A stretch of DNA of 59,208 bases, counting the filler, from Fonticula-like sp. SCN 57-25 (Eukaryota), in assembly GCA_001724245.1 (NCBI GenBank). It is 6 parts of 6 records of this genome, joined end to end, with 100 filler letters (N's around TTAATTAATTAA, not from the genome) between each part and the next. Parts side by side here need not be neighbours in the genome. Positions count along the whole stretch, not along the records: positions 1 to 9,171 come from MEDX01000267.1; 5 more parts are not named here. One strand, 5' to 3'. A model generated the notes under the pieces. It saw only the letters and a program-made list of their open reading frames with translations, was not told the DNA's origin and made no database searches. Positions 4,550 through 51,288 of this stretch are shown piece by piece (the first letter of the stretch is position 1; the number at the start of each line of letters is the position of its first letter). The translations under genes and the position numbers were made by a program.

Positions 4550-5022
4550 GGCGGCGGCGCAGGTGAGCGGCAGCACGCGCAGGCTACACTAGGCAAACGA
4601 GGCGATCTGATGGAGGACCGGCGCAGACCGCTCTCTCCGGGGCGGAGCCGAGCAACCAACGACGTGTCAACTACCCCTGAATCTGCCCCGGATTAAATGC
4701 GGGGGTGGTACCGGGATTCCCAACAGGGCTCCGCCACGTGGGTGACTATCAAGGAAGGAAATGCGCGGAAAAGGGCGCTATATTCAATGAAAAGGAGCCT
4801 GTAAGGCAAGCAGCTATACTATTTAAATACTTGACTTGCTCTTTGTTGTATTTTAAAAGAGACGCCAATACCCTTTTCCATCTTATGGATTTGATGTGCC
4901 ATACACAAAATGAACATACCTCCTCATACAGCGTGAATATTGTATTAAAGTATTGATAGAGCGTGTCAAACAAATCTTTTATGTCATTAGAATACAGAAA
5001 AAAGTACACAAGAAGCTTTTTC

Positions 5023-8000
5023 TTATCTGCGCCGCGGCTTTGACGTCGACGCCCCAAGGCTAAACTGCACTCCACCCTGCGACTGCGCGCCAAACACGGG
5101 CGCCGCCGCCGCGCCACCGAAATTGAACGTCGATGTCGGATTGGCCGCCGGCGCAGCGCCGCCAAACGGCGAAGCGGACGCGGCCGGCGGGGCAAACGCG
5201 CCGCCAAAACCGGACGCGGTCGCAGTGCCAAAAGTAGACGACTTGCCTGGCGTGCCAAATGTCGGCGAAGGCGCGGCGGCGGTCGAGTTAAAACCGCCAA
5301 AAGCGGGCGCGGCGGAGGGCGCGGCGGCGGGCTTGGCACCGCCAAAGGAGAAGGCGGGGGACGCTGCTGATTGGGCGTTGAATGCAGGGGACGCAGCTGA
5401 TTGGCCGCCAAAGGCAGGAGCTGATTGGGCGCCAAAGGCAGGCGTGGTCGATTGAGCGCCAAACGCAGGCTGAGTTGATTGAGCGCCAAAGGCAGGAGCA
5501 GATTGAGCGCCAAAGGCAGGAGACGCAGTTGATTGGCCGCCGAAACCGGGCTGAGCACCTGATTGGGCGCCGAAAGCAGGCTGACCTCCTGATTGGCCGC
5601 CAAAAGAGGGTGTTGTGGTGGTCGGCGTCTGCGCGCCAAAGGAAAAGGCCGGCTTGTTCGCCTGAGCACCCGCTGCCTGGCCTCCTGATTGGCCTCCAAA
5701 CGCAGGCTGAGCACCTGATTGGCCACCAAAGCCAGGCTGAGCACTAGGCTGGGCACCAAAGGCAGGAGACGCAGTCGATTGAGCACCAAACGCCGGAGAA
5801 GCACTAGGCTGAGCGCCAAAAGCGGGAGCAGCTGATTGGTTACCAAAGCCAGGCTGAGCACCTGATTGGCCGCCATTCATTGTCGCCGCAAACGGATTCG
5901 CCGCCGCGCCGGCACCAAAGCTCGGCTTCACCGCGGGCGATGCCGCTGGCGCCGACTGACCACCAAAAGAGAAAGGCGACGCAGCGGGTGCCGCGGACGG
6001 CGCTGCAATGGCGGCGGGCTTGGCGGCGGTCGGTATCGAAAGGAGGTTTGCTTGCGAGCCAAAGGAGGGAATGCCAATGGACGGCGCGGCACCGAAACTG
6101 AATCCACCCGAAGGAGCAGCAGGTGTGGGGGTAGATGCTGCAGGTGCAGCACCAAAGGAAGGCGCAGCAGCAGCAGGAGCAGCACCAAAGGAAGGTGTAG
6201 TTGTAGGTGCAGCACCAAAGGCAGGAGCAGCAGCAGGTGTAGATGCTGCAGGAGTTGCACCAAAGGAAGGTGTAGATGCACCGAAAGAAGTTGCAGCAGA
6301 TGCACCTGCGGGAGTGGCGCCAAAGGAGGGTGCTGCAGCAGCAGGAGTGGAAGTGCCAGTGGCGGGTGAAGGTGCAGCACCGAATGAAAATCCACCTGGA
6401 GCAGCAGCAGGCGCAGCAGCAGGCTTGGCAGCAGGAGCACCAAACGCAGGTGCAGCAGCAGGTGTAGCAGCAGGTGCACCAAAGGCGGGGGTCGTAGTAG
6501 GTGCAGCAGCAGGAGTGGCACCAAAGGCAGGTGTAGCAGGTGCAGCAGCAGGAGTGGCAGCAGGTGCAGCAGAAGCATTGCCAAATGAAAATCCACCTGC
6601 AGCAGGTGCAGCAGCAGCAGGCGCAGCAGAAGGCGCAGGCGTACTACCAAAGGAAAATCCACCCGCAGCAGGTGCAGCAGCAGCAGGTGCAGCAGCAGGC
6701 GCAGGCGTACTACCAAAGGAAAATCCACCCGCGGCAGGTGCAGGTGCAGCAGCAGGTGCAGCAGTAGTACTAGCAGGTGCAGCAGTAGTACTAGCAGGTG
6801 CAGCAGCACCAAAGGCAGGTGCAGTAGCAGTACTAGGTGCAGCAGCAGGTGCAGCAGACGTCGGTCCACCGAATGAAAACTTGGGGCCGCCGTCGGCCGC
6901 CGCCGGTGCAACAGCGGGCTTTGTGTCGGAGGTCGCCTTGGGCTTTTCCACGTAAGGCTCAAGCTGCGTCTTGGGCGCGATGTTCAGGGCAACGGGAACA
7001 AGCTCGGTCCTCTCTGGCGGGGCAGCCTATGGAAGGAGTAAGAAAAACAATTGATAATGACATTAAAACTACATGAAAATATCACAAAAATTACCAAAAA
7101 TGACCAAGAAAGTCACAAAAAACATGAAATCGACCCAAAAATGCTCACAAAAACACTAAAACATGCATCTAAACACCACCAAAATACGACAAAAACTTCC
7201 AAGACGCACCACATTGGTTCCCTGCCTGAGCAGCTCCTCCACCCTCTCATCCACCACCTCCTCTGCGATATCCACAATCGACCTCGCCGTCGGAATCGCC
7301 GGCCTCTTCACCACCCTCTGCGTCGTCGCCGACATCGGCACTCGCCCCGCGCGCGCCGCCTTCCCGGGCGTCCCAAAATTGACCGCCTCGCGCGGCGTGT
7401 GCGGCGTGCTCGGCGCCATCCGCGGCGGCGGCTCTGTCGACGGCGCCTGACGTGCCACTGCGGGCGTCGCGACGGGCGTCACAGCAACGGGTTCGTCCAT
7501 GGCAACGTCGGTTTGTGTGCTTGCAGTCGCAGAGGGCGGCGAAGCAGAGACGCTCGCGCGGCGCGACGGCGCTTTTGAGGGGGTCGACTTTGACGGCTTC
7601 TTTGCTTGCGAGGAAGGCGCAGTGGACGCTGCGGGGCGCTTGCGGGAAGACTTGGCAGTGGGCGTGTCGAGGTCGACGTCCATTGGGTCAGAGGGGGCGT
7701 CGTGAGCGGTGCGCCGCTTCTTGGGGTGCGCGTCGGCGGCAACGGTCGACTGCGGCTTATCCTAAATTAACAAATTAGCAACAGTTGACATGAAAAATGA
7801 CATGATTGACATGAAACTAATATGAAAGAGGCACAAAAAACAATAACAATAAACATACCGAGCCGGGAAGTGCGCGCTTTGATTGGCGAGCATTGGGCGC
7901 CTCGGCTTGTACGGGCTGGAACTCTGGCACGAGCTCGTAGACGACCGGACGATCCTGGCCCTGAGTGTACAGCTCGGGCGACGAAAAGAAGGAGCGCGAC

Positions 8001-8503
8001 GTTGTCGAGAACGTCGATGCGCTCGAGGGCTCCCAGCGCGCGTGATCGACCGCTGATGCCGGGGTCAGCAACGGCACGCATGATGGGGATGGGGCGTACG
8101 ATCGGGCGCAGCGTAGGCATGCGAAGGGAATGCGGGCGCAGTCGTCTCAAACATCATGCTGCGAGCACCGGCATCAGCATGCCACCTGTATCATAGCGTT
8201 AGCTTCATCGTCTCTTTACAGCATCAGGCGCGCACGATCGCTTCGAAGCGGCATCAGGTGACGTGCGCGGCAATCTCCTCTCTGCCAAAGACCGTCAGCA
8301 TCAAACCACCGCAGCACAGCCATCCCCGCACCCATAATAACCGCCTCGCGACGCTGTCCCTGCGCGACCGGCACGAGCGCCTCGTGCACGGCAACGGGCA
8401 CCACCCGCGACGGGGCGCCGATGCGACCCTCTTTCTTGAGCAGCATCCAGTAGGCGGCGGCGGCCAAGCACGCCAAAAGGGCGAGCAGCACCGTCCACAG
8501 CAT
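5023..8503 (-). CDS. Transmembrane FG-repeat nucleoporin, POM121-like architecture (~1017 aa, 6 exons)
   Basis: Exons 8503-8332, 8281-8236, 8185-8100, 8052-7859, 7761-7210, 7026-5023 splice in frame through canonical introns; N-terminal hydrophobic helix, PKKRR/SRKRP basic motifs, ~640 aa of PAFG/FSFG repeats, basic C-terminus FSLGASTSKPRRR. Confidence 0.75.
6583..6760 (-). repeat. Three ~60-bp tandem units encoding APAAGGFSFG(STPAP) within the FG nucleoporin
   Basis: aaaatccacc(t/c)gc(a/g)gcaggtgca repeated at ~6587, ~6654, ~6720. Confidence 0.8.
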
Positions 8504-8715
8504 TGCCCGCTCGTGCTGTCAATAAAATATACGGCAATACAATGCGCGCAAGATAAATAACAAAGCCTGTATAAACTAGTCGGCACGCGCGCGTCCTTTT
8601 TTTCCTCGTCAAGATCAGCGCCGCGTGCACGTAACGCGCAAAGATTTCGCGCGCCACCGCGGCCACGTGGATAACCACAGCCGTTCCCGCCGCGCCGATA
8701 GAAAGCGCGGGCGCA

Positions 8716-9171
8716 ATGTCGACGGCGGACTTTGAGAGCCTCAAGCTGATTCGGTGCGCTTCTCGCCGCTTTTTCCTCATTAACTGCTGCTGTTGTGTTG
8801 CTCTTTTGTTTCATATAACTTACGTTTCTTTTTCAGGCAAGATGGCGATCGTCTGGAGCAGGTGCGCGAGGTGTACCTCGAGATGGCAACCAAGGCCGAG
8901 ATGCTGCAGCAGATGCTGAGCGACGTTCGGCTGGAAAAGCAGTCGCTTCTGCGCGAAAAGAACGAGTACCTCGGCCTCTTGCGCGCTGTTCAGCAGGACA
9001 TCGACGCCGTACGTGCCCTTTAATGCCAGCACATCGGCATCTGACCATGGTCGACCAGACGTCGCAACTTGAGGATCGACTCGTGCAGCGCCACGAAGCG
9101 CAGCAAGCAGAGCTCAAGCAGCTCCAGGACGTTCAGTTTGAGCCTCTCAAAGCACAACTGGACGAAATGCG
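8716..9171 (+). CDS. ZC4H2: ZC4H2-like coiled-coil protein, truncated by contig end
   Basis: Spliced FESLKLIR|QDGDRLEQVREVYLEM...LLREKNEYLGLLRAVQQDIDA|...FEPLKAQLDEMR parallels ZC4H2 LESIKEIR...[20 protein letters not shown]...YKPLKEHVDALR; zinc finger not in window. Confidence 0.65.
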
Positions 9172-9271
9172 NNNNNNNNNNNNNNNNNNNNNNNNNNNNN
9201 NNNNNNNNNNNNNNNTTAATTAATTAANNNNNNNNNNNNNNNNNNNNNNNNNNNNNNNNNNNNNNNNNNNN
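9172..9271. other. Artificial contig linker (44N-TTAATTAATTAA-44N)
   Basis: Identical 100-nt spacer with stops in all six frames, repeated five times. Confidence 0.98.
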
Positions 9272-9680: not shown

Positions 9681-9754
9681 AGGAAAGCACAAGAAAGCAC
9701 CTTCCGACTCCTTTTTTTCATCCTTTTTCTCTTTAAATAATTCACCACTTCACC

Positions 9755-10930
9755 ATGCTTCGCGCGCTGTCGGTGGCCCGCGCGCCGCTGGTCCGCCGCG
9801 CGGCGCTCGCCACGAGCGTGCCCACGGTCCGCATCGACCTCCAGTCTGGCCACTCGTTCTCTGGCACCTCGTTTGGCGCGCCCAAGTCTGTCGCCGGCGA
9901 GCTCGTCTTTTCCACCGGCATGGTTGGCTACCCCGAGGCGATGAGCGACCCTTCGTACCGCGGTCAGATCCTTGTCTTTACGCAGCCGCTGATCGGCAAC
10001 TATGGCGTGCCCCCGTCGAGCACTGACAAGTACGGCCTTCAAGAGTTCCTCGAGTCGCCCGGCATCCAGGCGGCGGGCATCATTGTGTCCGACTATGCCG
10101 CTCAGTACTCGCACTGGAACGCGGCCGAGTCGCTCGCCTCGTGGTGCAAGCGCTTTGACGTGCCCGCCGTGACGGGCGTCGACACTCGCGCGCTCACCAA
10201 GCTGCTGCGCAGCCAGGGCTCGACGCTCGGCCGCCTCGTCGTGGGCGGCAGCGAGGTCCCCTTTGAGAACCCGAACGAGCGCAACCTCGTTGCCGACGTG
10301 TCCACCAAGGAGGTCAAGGTGTACAACCCGAACGGCGATGTCACGATTGCGCTGGTGGACTGCGGCGTCAAGCACAACATTATCCGGTGCCTCGCTGACC
10401 GCGGCGCCAAGGTGGTCGTTGTGCCGTGGGACTATGACGTGTCGCAGGTGGCGTACGACGGCCTGCTGCTGTCGAACGGCCCCGGCGACCCCGCTCGCTG
10501 CGGCCCGACGGTCGACATTATCCGCAAGGCGCTCGGCCGCCGCGAGCCCATCTTTGGCATCTGCATGGGCAACCTGCTGCTCGGCTTGGCCGCCGGGGGC
10601 AAGTCGTACAAGCTGCGCTTTGGCAACCGCGGGCACAACCAGCCTGCGCTCAACACTGTCACCAACACTGGCGTCATCACGTCGCAGAACCACGGCTACG
10701 CCATTGACGTGGCCACGCTCGGCGAAGGGTGGCTGCCGTACTTTGTCAACATCAACGACGGCTCGAATGAGGGTCTGCGCCACGCGAGCAAGCCGTTCAC
10801 GTCGGTGCAGTTCCACCCCGAGTACCGCGGCGGGCCCGAGGACACGGCCGTCCTCTTTGATAGCTTTATGAAGAGCGTTCGCGCGGGCAAGCTCGAGGCG
10901 GCTGATGACGTCATTGCTGCTACGGCGTGA
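9755..10930 (+). CDS. CPA1: Arginine-specific carbamoyl-phosphate synthetase small (glutaminase) subunit, mitochondrial presequence-like N-terminus
   Basis: GELVFSTGMVGYPEAMSDPSYRGQIL, SNGPGDP, GICMG (Cys), TSQNHGY, QFHPE (His/Glu); Arg/Ala-rich acid-free N-terminus; intronless. Confidence 0.96.
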   Translation: MLRALSVARAPLVRRAALATSVPTVRIDLQSGHSFSGTSFGAPKSVAGELVFSTGMVGYPEAMSDPSYRGQILVFTQPLIGNYGVPPSSTDKYGLQEFLESPGIQAAGIIVSDYAAQYSHWNAAESLASWCKRFDVPAVTGVDTRALTKLLRSQGSTLGRLVVGGSEVPFENPNERNLVADVSTKEVKVYNPNGDVTIALVDCGVKHNIIRCLADRGAKVVVVPWDYDVSQVAYDGLLLSNGPGDPARCGPTVDIIRKALGRREPIFGICMGNLLLGLAAGGKSYKLRFGNRGHNQPALNTVTNTGVITSQNHGYAIDVATLGEGWLPYFVNINDGSNEGLRHASKPFTSVQFHPEYRGGPEDTAVLFDSFMKSVRAGKLEAADDVIAATA

Positions 10931-18440: not shown

Positions 18441-18540
18441 NNNNNNNNNNNNNNNNNNNNNNNNNNNNNNNNNNNNNNNNNNNNTTAATTAATTAANNNN
18501 NNNNNNNNNNNNNNNNNNNNNNNNNNNNNNNNNNNNNNNN
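18441..18540. other. Artificial contig linker
   Basis: 44N-TTAATTAATTAA-44N. Confidence 0.98.
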
Positions 18541-27679: not shown

Positions 27680-27779
27680 NNNNNNNNNNNNNNNNNNNNN
27701 NNNNNNNNNNNNNNNNNNNNNNNTTAATTAATTAANNNNNNNNNNNNNNNNNNNNNNNNNNNNNNNNNNNNNNNNNNNN
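27680..27779. other. Artificial contig linker
   Basis: 44N-TTAATTAATTAA-44N. Confidence 0.98.
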
Positions 27780-37857: not shown

Positions 37858-37957
37858 NNNNNNNNNNNNNNNNNNNNNNNNNNNNNNNNNNNNNNNNNNN
37901 NTTAATTAATTAANNNNNNNNNNNNNNNNNNNNNNNNNNNNNNNNNNNNNNNNNNNN
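37858..37957. other. Artificial contig linker
   Basis: 44N-TTAATTAATTAA-44N. Confidence 0.98.
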
Positions 37958-47082: not shown

Positions 47083-47182
47083 NNNNNNNNNNNNNNNNNN
47101 NNNNNNNNNNNNNNNNNNNNNNNNNNTTAATTAATTAANNNNNNNNNNNNNNNNNNNNNNNNNNNNNNNNNNNNNNNNNNNN
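47083..47182. other. Artificial contig linker
   Basis: 44N-TTAATTAATTAA-44N. Confidence 0.98.
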
Positions 47183-48271
47183 ACCTACAACCTCAACAAA
47201 ACCGTCATGAACCTCGTCGAGGAATACCAAACAATCCCGGAATTCCCAGGAAACGTCTATTTCGATACTGGTTCATATCATCGTGCCGTCGATGACGATC
47301 TTTTTACCGCGTGGCGCCCTTTTCACCCCCTATCACCTGGTGACTATTTTGGGCTCGACCTTTTATATGTGAGGGCGCACGCGAGGATTTCATTGGTGTG
47401 CAGCCAGCCAATCGAAATGTTTTATATAGAGACAAGTGTCGGTGGTCACAAGTGGTCACGTGCTCTCTATACTGTTCATCAATTACTCACCCTAACACCG
47501 GGGATTTCGCTGTATGAGCTGCAGCTGCCCACGTCATCAGTTTTCCGCTTTGTCCGCTTCGTGGCGGGGCCGAGATTTGGCGGGAAAGCGATAAGGGCGG
47601 ATGTGTATGACGTCAGAGAAGGCTGGTTTCTGATTGGCTCAGTGCCGGTTTTCGGTGTCAGCGTTTACTCGGGGGCGTTCTTGGAAAGAAGGCCGGAAGG
47701 CGAAGAATATGCGACATTGGAAAGATGGCGCGCAAATGTCGTCGAACTTATGAGGTCAAATCCTGTCCACGTGGTCGGTGATAATTCTGTCCACGTGGCC
47801 GGTGAGCGTGTTGGTGGCGGGAAAGCGGAAGAGGCCATGTCGCTTTCGCCGCTCGCTCTGACCACGTGGACGGTCGATCAGAATGTGCTGCACGTGTACA
47901 GCGCAAATGGCGGGAAATTCTCTTTGCTTGGAAGCATGACGATTGGTCAGAAAACGGCCGCGCCACTTTTGGTCACGTGCCGCTTATCTTCCGATGCGCG
48001 CCAAGTGTCCAATCACAACGAAGCGGGTTTATTCATCATCATTGACGTCATGCTTCAGGATGGCACGTGGATTCACGGGGCTCAGGTGATCGTGTTCTCT
48101 TCTGGCACGCATGGCCCTGAGCTGCAATTGGTCAGGTTGACGTATCAGATGCCGGTGCAGTTGATCGTGTTTTCTATTAATGTGTTGCATCATCATGGTA
48201 TGGTTGTTATCGATGATATCGCGGTGTCGGAGCAGGTGGTTGTTGATGATAGGGAAAATGATAGGAAATAG
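47183..48271 (+). CDS. C-terminal part of a paralog of the adjacent glycosyltransferase-like gene; two putative carbohydrate-binding beta-sandwich domains
   Basis: YHRAVDDDLFTAW...GDYFGLDLL and FRFVRFVA shared with the 49050-51288 gene; terminal DGTWIHGAQ..FSSGTHG...VIDDIAV CBM-like segment; 5' end lost at contig start. Confidence 0.6.
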   Translation, partial: TYNLNKTVMNLVEEYQTIPEFPGNVYFDTGSYHRAVDDDLFTAWRPFHPLSPGDYFGLDLLYVRAHARISLVCSQPIEMFYIETSVGGHKWSRALYTVHQLLTLTPGISLYELQLPTSSVFRFVRFVAGPRFGGKAIRADVYDVREGWFLIGSVPVFGVSVYSGAFLERRPEGEEYATLERWRANVVELMRSNPVHVVGDNSVHVAGERVGGGKAEEAMSLSPLALTTWTVDQNVLHVYSANGGKFSLLGSMTIGQKTAAPLLVTCRLSSDARQVSNHNEAGLFIIIDVMLQDGTWIHGAQVIVFSSGTHGPELQLVRLTYQMPVQLIVFSINVLHHHGMVVIDDIAVSEQVVVDDRENDRK

Positions 48272-48639
48272 GAGATAAAAGGGAAAGTGGTGGTGCAATA
48301 TGTGCATTGTTATATAGAAATTTTGTCGGAATTTGATATGGTTTTTATTGTTTTTATTGTTTTTTTACTTTTTTTCTTACTTGTTTTTTACTTGTTTTTT
48401 ACTTGTTTTTCACTTTTTCATATTTGTTTTTCTTATCATTTTCGTGGAATACTTCCACTTTGTTTGTTCAACTATCGCATTGATTACTGTTATCTAAAGT
48501 GGCATGCTGACCGATCGTCGCTCACGTGATCGCCACTCAAGGTAGTACTGCACTTTTTTTTCTATAAACAATCACTCATATTTGAAAGTTGTTTCTTTGC
48601 TTGGCGCTCTCTTTGTGTCCTTAATAAAGCAAGTAAATT

Positions 48640-48850
48640 GATATTGACCCTATTGACTTTAGATACAGTATTGACCATAATAACTTTGATATTGACCATA
48701 TCGTCTCATAGAGTATTGAAACACATATCCATATCAGATATTACAGTATCAAATACTGTAATGTACTTGGATTGACCATCATATCTGCATCATATAGATA
48801 CATATCAGATATCTAATATATGACCATCATATTGACCATCATATAGATAT
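48640..48850. repeat. Degenerate ATTGACCAT(CATAT) repeat in AT-rich intergenic region
   Basis: attgacc(a) units at ~48643, 48670, 48691, 48771, 48832 and related variants. Confidence 0.6.
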
Positions 48851-49049
48851 TCATTGTTGACACAATGATGAAATTCTCTTTTTTGTTGACACATTCACTT
48901 TGAAAATACTTCTTTGATATCATGGACAAACATGCCAAAATATAATCAATTTTGTTCTAAATTGATCTAAAACACTCATTTCTGGTCCAAATTGTATTCT
49001 TTTTTCATCCAAATATCATTTTATTCTCCTTTTCTCTTCCTTACAATAG

Positions 49050-51288
49050 CTAATATGCCACTCTTCTCGCCGCACTCGCACACCTCCCCACACTCACCCC
49101 CCCCACCCTAAACCTCTCCTCTGCCATTCCACTCTCCGCCACAAACCTCACATACCTAAACACACATTCCTTCACATTCCCAACCAACACATATTCATAT
49201 TTATACCCACTCATACCATTTATACCATTCTTGGAATACCCACTTTTAGTATCAAGTTGCCATGTGCACCGTGACTCATCCCAGAAATCATTCTCATCGC
49301 GCACTTGAACACGCAACTTTTCCTGGAATTCATGATAGACGGTCACGTGCAATGACGTACATGCGTCAGCATTCAAAATATCAAGGCCGAAAAAGTCGCC
49401 TTGGCGGATACCGACAGAAGATTCCCAGTAGGTGGATGGGTCAGGGTCTACGGCCATGTGGTAGGGGTGGGCGAGGAAGGGCGTGCGATCGTAGAGGAGT
49501 GAGGCACGTGACTCGACGACGGTGATGTTGTCGCCGCGGTGGTAGAGGAAGGAGGAGGGGGAGGGGAAGTTGCTGGGGTTGGTCAAGAAAAGACACGTGT
49601 CGTCATGGCAGGGGGCACTATTGAAAAGGTATGAGGGTTAGGAAAAGTGGCATAAAAAGATATGAAAAGAAAGGACAAACATAAAAAGTGGCATGAAAAG
49701 GTATGAAAAGTATCATAAAAAGGTATGAAAAGGTATGAAAAGTGGCATAAAAGAGTTCATAAAGAGTGTCATAAAAAGTGTCATAAAAAGTGTCATGGCA
49801 TAAAAAGTGACATGAAAAGTGTCATAAAAAGGTATGAAAAGTGGCATGAAAAGGTACGAAAAGTGACATAAAAAGGTATAAAAAGTCATAAAAAGGTATG
49901 AAAAGTGGCATAAAAAGATATGAGGGACAAACATAAAAAGGTATGAAAAGTGTCATAAAGAGTGTCATGAAAAGTGCCTTGGCATAAAAAGTGGCATGAA
50001 AAGTGTCATAAAAAGGGTCATGGCATGAGAAGAGGCATGAAAAGTGTCATATAAAGGTATAAAAAGTGTCATAAAAAGTGTCATAACAAACTACCATACA
50101 AACTACCATAAAAACGTTGTTCCCAGCGAGGCGTGTGGTGCGCGACGGGAAAGAGCGGGTCATTTGCCTTGAGGCGGTCGTACAAAATGCGCGCGCCGGC
50201 AGTCTATAAAAACGCACAAAAAGGCACAAAAAAGCGCGCCAAATCACATTTTAGACTCATTTTTGCACATTTTTGCTTTAAAAATGCGTCAAAAACGTAC
50301 CATGTGATGCATATTGCGTGCAATTCCGCCTTGTTCGCTACTAAACCCGAACCGCTCCTCTAGCTCGACGAGCGTCGTCTCGAGCTGGTACGGCACCTGG
50401 TTCATCCAGGTGGCAAAGTACATGTCGGCGAGCAGCGCATCCGTCTCGTTCAGGTAGCGCAGCTGCTCCATGAAGCGCACGACGGCGGCCTTGTCGACAA
50501 TGGCGCCGGTGCCGAGCCACGAAAAGCCCGAGTGCATATTCACGGCTGCAGGCGCGCAACAAAAAAACACGTCAGCGGCGGCGACCGCGGATCTGATCGG
50601 CAGAATCTGATCGTACCGGGTTCGAAAAATGACCATGCCCATGTCAGGTAGTGCACAAACTCGTTCGTGATGGTGTGCAGGAGATGCGGGCTGCGGAGAA
50701 AGCTAGAGTACATGGAGCGCAGCCAGTCGTTGCGCCAATCGTCATCCTGAAAGTAGCAGTAGTCGCCGGCGGACATGAGGCATGCGGTGTAGCGCGCGAC
50801 AAAGTACTTGTTTTCCTTGGAGTTGATGATGCGCATCGGGATCGGGAGCGGCGCGGCAAAATCCTGTGCGGGAAAGGAAAGAAAAGATCAGCGAGCGCGC
50901 TAAAGATCGCCAAGGCGTACGGATTCGGTTAGGGCGCGATCTACGTTGTTGTTCCAGACGACCATGTCGACAGTGAAATCAGAGTAGCGCTGGACAGACT
51001 CGACCACTTTCTGAAGCGAGTCCACGCGAATGTAGCCGAGCAGAATAATAGAAAGCCTATTTTTGCGGCAAAATGCGCACGCAGGTATCAGTCAATGCCG
51101 GCTCGCGCGCGTCAGTTGGCGATCGCGTACTTTTTTGGAAGACGAATGTTGCGCTTTCCAAATTCATTCTCACTTGATTCGCCCGAGCGAACAGCCGAAA
51201 TAATAAAATACTGCAAGACAAGGATAGCCAAAATTGCAAAGCACAGCCGCTGCGTGCGGTTGAGCCGCGTGAGGCCCCGGGCTAGCAT
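49050..51288 (-). CDS. Type II membrane glycosyltransferase-like protein (GT-A fold) with C-terminal discoidin/CBM-like domain, multi-exon
   Basis: N-terminal signal anchor (RLCFAILAILVLQYFII), LSIILLGY, VVWNNN, CYFQDDDW (DxD), FSWLGTGA, LADMYF; C-terminal YHMAVDPDPSTYW..GDFFGLD. Confidence 0.7.
49620..50112. repeat. ~490-bp degenerate minisatellite (AAAAGTGKCAT / AAAAGGTATG, 10-11 nt) forming an intron
   Basis: Dozens of aaaagtg(g/t)cat and aaaaggtatg units in tandem. Confidence 0.9.

Follow-up and report, generated by a model that had tools for sequence, protein, structure and literature searches.

Can a unicellular eukaryote hold the phenylalanine-glycine (FG) repeats of its nuclear pores at the membrane by means of a transmembrane helix in the same protein, with the layout of vertebrate POM121? 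The question is raised by a gene of Fonticula-like sp. SCN 57-25 (GenBank assembly GCA_001724245.1). The DNA analysed here, hereafter the window, is a stretch of 59,208 nucleotides (nt) in which six parts of six records are joined end to end. The gene lies in the first part (MEDX01000267.1), on the minus strand from 8503 to 5023, and its limits are those of the ATG (8503-8501) and of the stop codon TAA (5025-5023).

The answer that we favour, with a probability of about 0.55, is that this six-exon gene encodes an FG nucleoporin of 1017 residues, which would be kept at the membrane by an N-terminal type-III signal-anchor helix. This best reading also includes clusters resembling nuclear localisation signals (NLSs), a single acidic helix predicted in exon 5, and a basic tail at the C-terminus. 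Such a protein would be POM121-like in its layout alone, and homology to POM121 finds no support in the sequence. We infer transcription into a single mRNA, the membrane topology, the localisation at the pore, and all binding steps from sequence elements, splice signals, and coding statistics.

Gene model

How is this gene assembled? The path proposed has six exons and five introns, all on the minus strand, and gives a coding sequence of 3051 nt, that is, 1017 codons with no internal stop. A sequence-only reading of the window had estimated a length of ~1017 residues, and the path through consensus splice sites yields exactly this number; the elements it had quoted, together with the limits 5023 and 8503, are all present on the minus strand. 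Upstream of ATG 8503, an in-frame TGA stands 18 nt away, and no further ATG occurs in the 60 nt on the 5′ side.

The same reading had taken five canonical introns, each preserving the frame, as the sign of one gene. A path of this kind does exist, but frame preservation by itself proves nothing, because the interval 8503-7859 allows 121 one-intron and 45,064 two-intron GT/GC...AG paths, all in frame and free of stops. This number is too high for a frame test, and therefore the features of the genome's own real introns were examined. A codon log-odds table was built on 13 open reading frames (ORFs) outside the locus, rich in G or C at the third codon position (GC3), and then used to locate strong coding segments. 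The donor model was trained on 25 gaps that separate adjacent segments of this type, again outside the locus, the splice sites in each being chosen by expectation-maximisation. The trained donors follow GT[AG][CT]G in about 21 of the 25 cases, GTACGC and GTGCGC being the commonest. Seventeen of the trained introns measure 40-71 nt (minimum 40 nt), the others 127-344 nt, and the motif CTRAY, where present in the short ones, usually begins 15-20 nt before the 3′ end.

Against this background one path stands out independently of the frame, and its splice signals are all typical for this genome. Introns 1, 2, and 3, with 50, 50, and 47 nt, have the modal size of the genome. Intron 1 (8331-8282) reads GTGCGG...CTGAC...CAG, with CTGAC 17 nt from the 3′ end and a donor score of 5.3 (91.3 percentile); intron 2 (8235-8186) reads GTGCGC...CTAAC...CAG, again at 17 nt, with a donor of 6.7 (95.2 percentile); and intron 3 (8099-8053) reads GTACGC...CTGAC...CAG, at 16 nt, with a donor of 9.6 (99.6 percentile) that is the top-scoring one in 8520-7000. 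Intron 4 (7858-7762; 97 nt, GC 0.27) has the form GTATGT...CTAAT...TAG and a donor of 7.0 (96.3 percentile), while intron 5 (7209-7027; 183 nt, GC 0.32) has the form GTGCGT...CCATAG, a donor of 8.1, and an acceptor of 13.2. The CTRAY motif is found 16-17 nt from the 3′ end in introns 1-4. The percentiles, given for four of the five donors, are ranks among all GT sites.

Is such a series of introns expected by chance? Textbook short introns, counted by a fixed definition, number three in the 645 nt of 8503-7859, whereas 200 shuffles predict 0.066 (Poisson P(≥3) = 4.5e-5); that three given introns all leave the frame open has a probability of ~0.15. If intron 4 is left unspliced the frame meets stops, and if intron 1 or 2 is retained the frame of ATG 8503 hits a stop at 8218-8216 or 8160-8158.

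With regard to the exons, most of them carry a coding signal of their own. Exon 1 (8503-8332, 172 nt, beginning with the ATG) has a log-odds of +21.4 bits over 57 codons (8503-8333); none of 2000 shuffles reaches this value, which exceeds that of each of the other five frames by over 24 bits. By codon position, the GC content of exon 1 (0.76/0.48/0.89) resembles that of the Pfam-supported genes of the window, and 17 of 18 codons of the helix, counted by eye, have G or C as third base. For exon 4 (8052-7859, 194 nt; +11.3 bits) and exon 5 (7761-7210, 184 codons; +18.5 bits), too, no shuffle among 2000 scores as high. Exon 6 (7026-5023) is made of 667 codons and the TAA, with the FG domain at ~6873-5089, and in its non-repeat start the codon signal is significant in the frame of the model. 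The two mini-exons are different: exon 2 (8281-8236, 46 nt) is set by its flanking splice signals alone and is the weakest part of the model, and exon 3 (8185-8100, 86 nt) holds an in-frame ATG ATG (8161-8156), a possible start for a protein devoid of the helix. As judged from intrinsic sequence signals, the gene model is well supported, and so is the in-frame junction of the helix exon to the FG body, through splice signals that fit the genome consensus.

Other sites were tried and rejected. Donor 8341 (GTTATT) scores -9.3, at the 3rd percentile; donor 8219 (GTAAAG) scores -4.7, at the 22nd percentile, and would define a 34-nt intron, below the trained minimum of 40 nt. Acceptor 7069 for intron 5 is stronger than the site at 7027 but would bring in an in-frame TAA. 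Two donor-like sites, 7970 (5.6) and 8168 (5.5), score above 8331, and both fall within exons of the model. Ranking the paths by their summed score was dropped as a test, as it preferred extra introns, including a model with a 5-nt exon.

The region of the mini-exons has other peculiarities. Introns 2 and 3 have in common a 14-nt context at their donors (8227-8240 and 8091-8104), CGATCGTRCGC..., with 86% identity, which hints at a duplication or at interchangeable 5′ splice sites. Four of the five matches to CTGATGCY in the whole window fall within 205 nt (8053-8257), in exon 2, intron 2, exon 3, and the acceptor of intron 3. A perfect inverted repeat of 11 nt (8052-8062 and 8168-8178) overlaps this same acceptor; a regulatory RNA stem formed by it was considered and discarded, the 156-nt fold being no stabler than its shuffles (z = 0.14).

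N-terminal helix

Is the N-terminus a true membrane anchor? The protein begins MLWTVLLALLACLAAAAYWMLL, followed by KKEGR. Residues 1-22 (8503-8438, minus strand) consist of Met and 21 uncharged hydrophobic residues, and are predicted to form a signal-anchor with a lumenal N-terminus. The segment was judged by hydropathy and hydrophobic moment, and the topology from the distribution of charges (positive-inside rule). Kyte-Doolittle means are 2.0-2.1 in 19-residue windows, with no charged residue in positions 2-22, in line with the hydrophobic helix that had been noticed at first sight. An amphipathic helix had been named as the outcome that would undo that proposal; the moment is 0.51 as against a mean hydropathy of 2.18, and a polar face is absent, so that the helix is not amphipathic. 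By these measures the N-terminal segment is of transmembrane grade. Translated in all six frames, the whole stretch yields few segments as hydrophobic as this one, 92 in 118,304 windows, about 16 of these being artefacts of runs of N.

As a rule, a long hydrophobic (h-) region with the positive charge after rather than before it favours an anchor that stays uncleaved, its N-terminus lumenal and the remainder of the protein cytosolic. The 21-residue h-region, the lack of any preceding positive charge, and the KKEGR that follows point to an anchor of this type, probably uncleaved and with its C-terminal bulk cytosolic. The P450 encoded in the same window has an N-terminus of similar style, namely a helix and a basic stop-transfer sequence.

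Repeat domain and family searches

Between the helix and the repeats, exon 5 encodes the two basic clusters already pointed out by the sequence-only reading, PKKRR (KKRR, 7722-7711) and SRKRP (RKR, 7644-7636). They lie ~155 residues past the helix, so that an NLS-type region is present here at motif level. Single-sequence AlphaFold2 predicts this exon to be mostly disordered, with a mean predicted local distance difference test score (pLDDT) of 59.7; one acidic helix is predicted at 7287-7219 (exon-5 residues 159-181), a block with pLDDT of 82-94.

The chain encoded by exon 6 is rich in Ala, Pro, Gly, Ser, and Phe. It contains 42 FG motifs at a median spacing of 13 residues (16 PAFG, 9 FSFG, 7 PSFG, 3 PGFG, and 7 others), and charged residues number 6 of 580 across its residues 61-640. 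The spacers of yeast FxFG repeats are charged; those of the present protein, in contrast, are almost uncharged. The C-terminus ends ...FSLGASTSKPRRR, with the basic tail KPRRR at 5040-5026. These motif counts and this tail bear out the long PAFG/FSFG region and the basic FSLG...KPRRR end that had been described before. A database search with the FG exon gave repeat-level matches only: the matches at E≤1e-5 are 11, all of them FG-repeat proteins, and 8 of the 11 are named Nup58, Nup62, or Nup98, or are annotated as nucleoporin autopeptidase. Among the three unnamed matches, P0012 shows a zinc-finger pattern of RanBP2 type and, at its C-terminus, a basic tail. The long, presumably disordered stretch of low charge, with regularly spaced FG motifs resembling nucleoporin repeats, is what defines the FG nucleoporins as a class, and by its sequence this repeat domain is of nucleoporin kind.

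The codon usage of this domain is peculiar. Exon 6 (5026-7026) has a GC3 of 0.43 and a GC content at the second position of 0.79, whereas the Pfam-supported genes of the window have a GC3 of 0.80-0.89. In the same gene, GC3 is higher in exon 1 (~0.89) and exon 5 (~0.78) than in the FG exon. The repeats use A/T-ending codons for Ala, Pro, and Gly, contrary to the bias of the genome.

To which FG nucleoporin, then, does this protein correspond? A Pfam hmmscan of all exon pieces found no family at E≤0.01, and no coiled-coil, autoproteolytic, propeller, Ran-binding, or zinc-finger domain in any piece. Because these domains are absent, Nsp1/Nup62, Nup58, Nup98, Nup159/214, Nup2/50, and Nup153 are excluded as such, and the remaining type is the FG nucleoporin devoid of folded domains, as in Nup1 and POM121. 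The features expected of single families give the same picture. The protein ends 20 residues past the last FG with no domain there, so that the C-terminal coiled-coil or autoproteolytic domain of Nsp1/Nup62, Nup58, and Nup98 is lacking, and GLFG, the hallmark of Nup98, accounts for none of the 42 FG tetrapeptides. Likewise, the N-terminus is not the amphipathic membrane helix of Nup153 and Nup1, and the RanBP2-type zinc fingers of Nup153 are missing. The FG repeats in the C-terminal part that characterize POM121 are there, with all 42 motifs in the last exon.

A deep homologue of POM121 had been one of the two proposals of the sequence-only reading, which had also suggested profile searches with the non-FG region. 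Such searches were run and found nothing: hmmscan extended to E≤10 returned no POM121 match, its sole yield being a Nucleoporin_FG match below threshold, and the non-FG parts have no relatives in the searches made. POM121 homology is therefore not shown, since Pfam finds no family. The 95-residue unspliced ORF, compared with 1.84 billion representatives by exhaustive HMMER, returned itself alone (P0001, a one-member cluster seen on 4 contigs). Word-index searches for longer proteins with exon 5 and with the ORF that contains exon 4 gave no relative; PDB sequences gave none at E≤1 for the non-repeat parts; and the ESM Atlas gave no usable match for exon 5. A metagenome scan with exon 5 found a single contig of 1014 nt (L001), 100% identical to and colinear with 7815-6802, introns included. 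This is the same DNA and says nothing on splicing. DNA of the same organism is thus present in a public metagenome assembly.

Comparison with known systems

Vertebrate POM121 is close in layout: a single N-terminal transmembrane segment (predicted in the present protein), NLS-type clusters before the repeats, an FG part at the C-terminal end, and ~1000 residues. The two differ in that sequence similarity is undetectable and that the FG domain takes up ~60% of the present protein. The NLSs of POM121 and its targeting to the inner membrane are described in PMC3069009, and its binding to the pore scaffold in PMC3003318. According to Neumann et al. (PMC2951903), POM121 is found in vertebrates only.

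Is this layout, then, restricted to vertebrates, as had been assumed at first? That assumption left out a precedent. In the ciliate Tetrahymena thermophila, TtPom121 is described as having an N-terminal transmembrane segment, C-terminal FG repeats, and an inferred N-terminal NLS; fused to green fluorescent protein, it was placed on the nuclear side of the macronuclear pores; and it was called an orthologue from its layout and from this localisation (PMC5450191). The same account gives TtPom82 a transmembrane segment at the end opposite to that of TtPom121. The Fonticula-like protein shares the layout of TtPom121, also non-vertebrate, a likeness drawn here from the description given in PMC5450191 and not from the sequence. 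The layout itself is already known outside vertebrates. Literature on POM121 homologues, orthologues, and POM121-like proteins offered no non-vertebrate case beyond Tetrahymena among the matches listed.

A second term of comparison is given by Nup1, Nup60, and Nup153. For yeast Nup1 and Nup60, PMC4425464 describes N-terminal amphipathic helices that tether the FG domains to the membrane, with karyopherin sites adjacent. Like the present protein, this group is devoid of a folded domain; its extreme N-terminus is described as bound to the nuclear membrane, near a helical region and karyopherin sites (PMC4425464). Motifs of FSFG type occur in the present protein as well, and its basic C-terminal tail recurs in the Nup153-like zinc-finger match P0012. 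The difference lies in the membrane element, which in that group is an amphipathic helix in one leaflet and here is uniformly hydrophobic over 21 residues; moreover, the zinc fingers set Nup153 apart. By analogy, the protein looks like the Nup1/Nup60 design, except that a full anchor stands where those two have a peripheral helix.

Proposed mechanism

How could such a protein work? The 21-residue helix and KKEGR would insert in the membrane of the endoplasmic reticulum, leaving the short N-terminus in the lumen and the remainder on the cytoplasmic or nucleoplasmic side. The protein may then diffuse along the outer nuclear membrane to the pore. Past the helix, after ~155 disordered residues, the two SV40-like basic clusters could recruit importin alpha/beta, and this binding would draw the soluble part to the nuclear side, with a targeting logic like that outlined for POM121 in PMC3069009. 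Docking to the pore scaffold may fall to the acidic amphipathic helix predicted just ahead of the repeats. The FG domain, ~600 residues almost free of charge, would reach into the channel, bind transport receptors, and add to the barrier, while the basic C-terminal tail is a second candidate site for importin.

Alternative readings

Several points weigh against a membrane-anchored nucleoporin. The gene model has no transcript support: the sole sequencing run found (X1; word share 0.06, its kind guessed) was compared with 6860-9100 at 80% likeness, and nothing was placed on the locus. The mini-exons do not read as coding: exon 2 has a log-odds of -18.3 bits, no better than shuffles (p = 0.89), and exon 3 of -8.1 bits (p = 0.20 versus shuffles), although the model frame of the latter is still the best of six by 12 bits. 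The pattern of textbook introns has a high background, with 22 in the whole window compared with a mean of 12.0 in 200 shuffles. Further, the joins 8331→8053 and 8235→8053 are also in frame, with the same consensus sites, and skip mini-exons; they stay open because donors 8331 and 8235 share the phase needed by acceptor 8053. These joins leave the internal exon structure unsettled and change the linker by 40-90 residues, and the fusion between helix and FG body is kept in all of them. The transmembrane segment is predicted from hydropathy and not by a dedicated predictor of transmembrane segments or signal peptides. Pfam Nucleoporin_FG remains below threshold (E = 0.63), and no relative was found in the searches made. 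Finally, ATG 8161 lies in frame inside exon 3 with an A at -3, and the product of a transcript that begins further downstream would be soluble.

This last point leads to the best placed of the competing explanations, one that we regard as unlikely though worth serious attention: a soluble basket-type FG nucleoporin, similar to Nup1 or Nup153, with its start codon in exon 3, at ATG 8161 or 8158. The ORF of the helix would then encode a small membrane protein of its own, serve as a leader, or belong to a minor isoform. The doublet ATG ATG (8161-8156) shares the frame of the FG repeats, no coding signal is seen in exons 2 and 3, and, with intron 1 kept and intron 2 spliced, the frame of ATG 8503 would end at the TGA 8160-8158, overlapping the downstream ATG. 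The 95-residue ORF call recorded on 4 contigs is identical to the unspliced frame; however, it is an ORF call on genomic-type contigs and no proof of a protein. What tells against this soluble form is that removal of the three consensus introns lets the frame of ATG 8503 continue into the FG body, and that exon 1 is clearly codon-like. Moreover, at least 10 ATGs (read by eye) occur between 8503 and 8161, and therefore a scanning ribosome on the full-length mRNA would not reach 8161. Nor is there space for a second promoter, and 8500-8160 holds no AT-rich promoter-like stretch, unlike the intergenic regions 4797-5016 and 8533-8570. In favour of the soluble form, helix-less forms of such a gene exist in the hominoid sPom121, according to the account in PMC4888837, and by analogy anchored and soluble forms could both be present here. 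On a bold reading, which we regard as improbable, the mini-exons, the duplicated donor context, and ATG 8161 could together act as a switch between the two forms, as with hominoid sPom121.

A bolder extension of the membrane-anchored reading, improbable at present, is that the gene is a very diverged true orthologue of POM121 and TtPom121, and that a membrane-anchored FG nucleoporin was already in the last eukaryotic common ancestor. Its absence from surveys elsewhere would then mean that it was missed, since layout and not sequence is kept.

Somewhat less probable still is a protein unrelated to the pore, that is, a membrane-anchored or signal-cleaved, secreted, low-complexity protein rich in Ala, Pro, Gly, and Ser. 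Many secreted or wall proteins have a hydrophobic N-terminus and then a low-complexity region, the Pfam nucleoporin families are all below threshold, and a structured nucleoporin domain is absent. On the other side stand the 42 regularly spaced PAFG/FSFG/PSFG-type motifs with almost no charge, and the fact that every one of the 11 significant matches has FG repeats, with 8 named or annotated as nucleoporins. In addition, the SV40-like clusters and the basic tail would have a role only on the cytoplasmic or nuclear side, and the 21-residue h-region with positives after it favours, by the general rules, an uncleaved anchor with a cytosolic bulk.

Least probable of all is a coincidental gene model, or a decaying 5′ part in which exon 1 is the remnant of another gene's first exon and the real 5′ end of the FG gene is elsewhere or non-canonical: the resemblance of the helix and its basic stop-transfer to the microsomal anchor of the window's P450, the lack of relatives of the ORF in the searches, and the thousands of in-frame paths would suit it, but three consensus introns within 645 nt are very unlikely by chance, the frame of exon 4 has no ATG back to 8146 and therefore requires an upstream start, and the distance from ATG 8503 to the divergent ATG 8717 of the neighbouring gene is just 213 nt, so that there is no room for another gene.

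Neighbourhood and other features of the window

The divergent neighbour (8717-9171, plus strand) starts with this ATG 8717 and reads as coiled-coil-like; a clean intron of 50 nt (GTACGT...CTGAC...CAG) interrupts it at 9009-9058. The intergenic stretch shared by the two genes, between 8503 and 8717, has an AT-rich core at 8533-8570 and a CACGTG box near 8665. Elsewhere the window encodes a PUF protein, an RA/PH protein, a P450, a P4-ATPase, an SPB4-type helicase, a TPT transporter, and a DAG-kinase-like protein. At 9740-10915 (plus strand) there is a stand-alone carbamoyl-phosphate synthase small chain (CPSase_sm_chain and GATase, E 1e-48 and 3e-44), with no CAD-type fusion, which gives a hint of the lineage. 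Taken with the short introns and their CTRAY motifs, this set of genes would suit a fungus. The most AT-rich block of the window, 48200-50100, has a GC of 0.35-0.43 per kb and islands at 48544-49051 and 49634-50110. Five pairs of 44-base runs of N, 12 bases apart within a pair, recur about every 9-10 kb, at 9172-9271, 18441-18540, 27680-27779, 37858-37957, and 47083-47182, and none of them touches the gene. Rfam and tRNA scans of the window gave nothing.

Meaning for nuclear pore evolution

What would a membrane-anchored FG nucleoporin in this organism add? The case rests on a single orphan gene model, and its value is limited accordingly. In the surveys, as reported in PMC2951903, Ndc1 and gp210 are the widespread membrane proteins of the pore, and POM121 is taken as a vertebrate gain. 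The ciliate TtPom121 raised a question: are transmembrane FG nucleoporins old, or have they been reinvented repeatedly? Were a further lineage, the third, to share this layout with no similarity that can be detected, it would bring one more case to this debate. It would also place a membrane element where Nup1, Nup60, and Nup153 have an amphipathic helix, and in this way the Fonticula-like protein may become a test case for how far anchors and peripheral helices are interchangeable.

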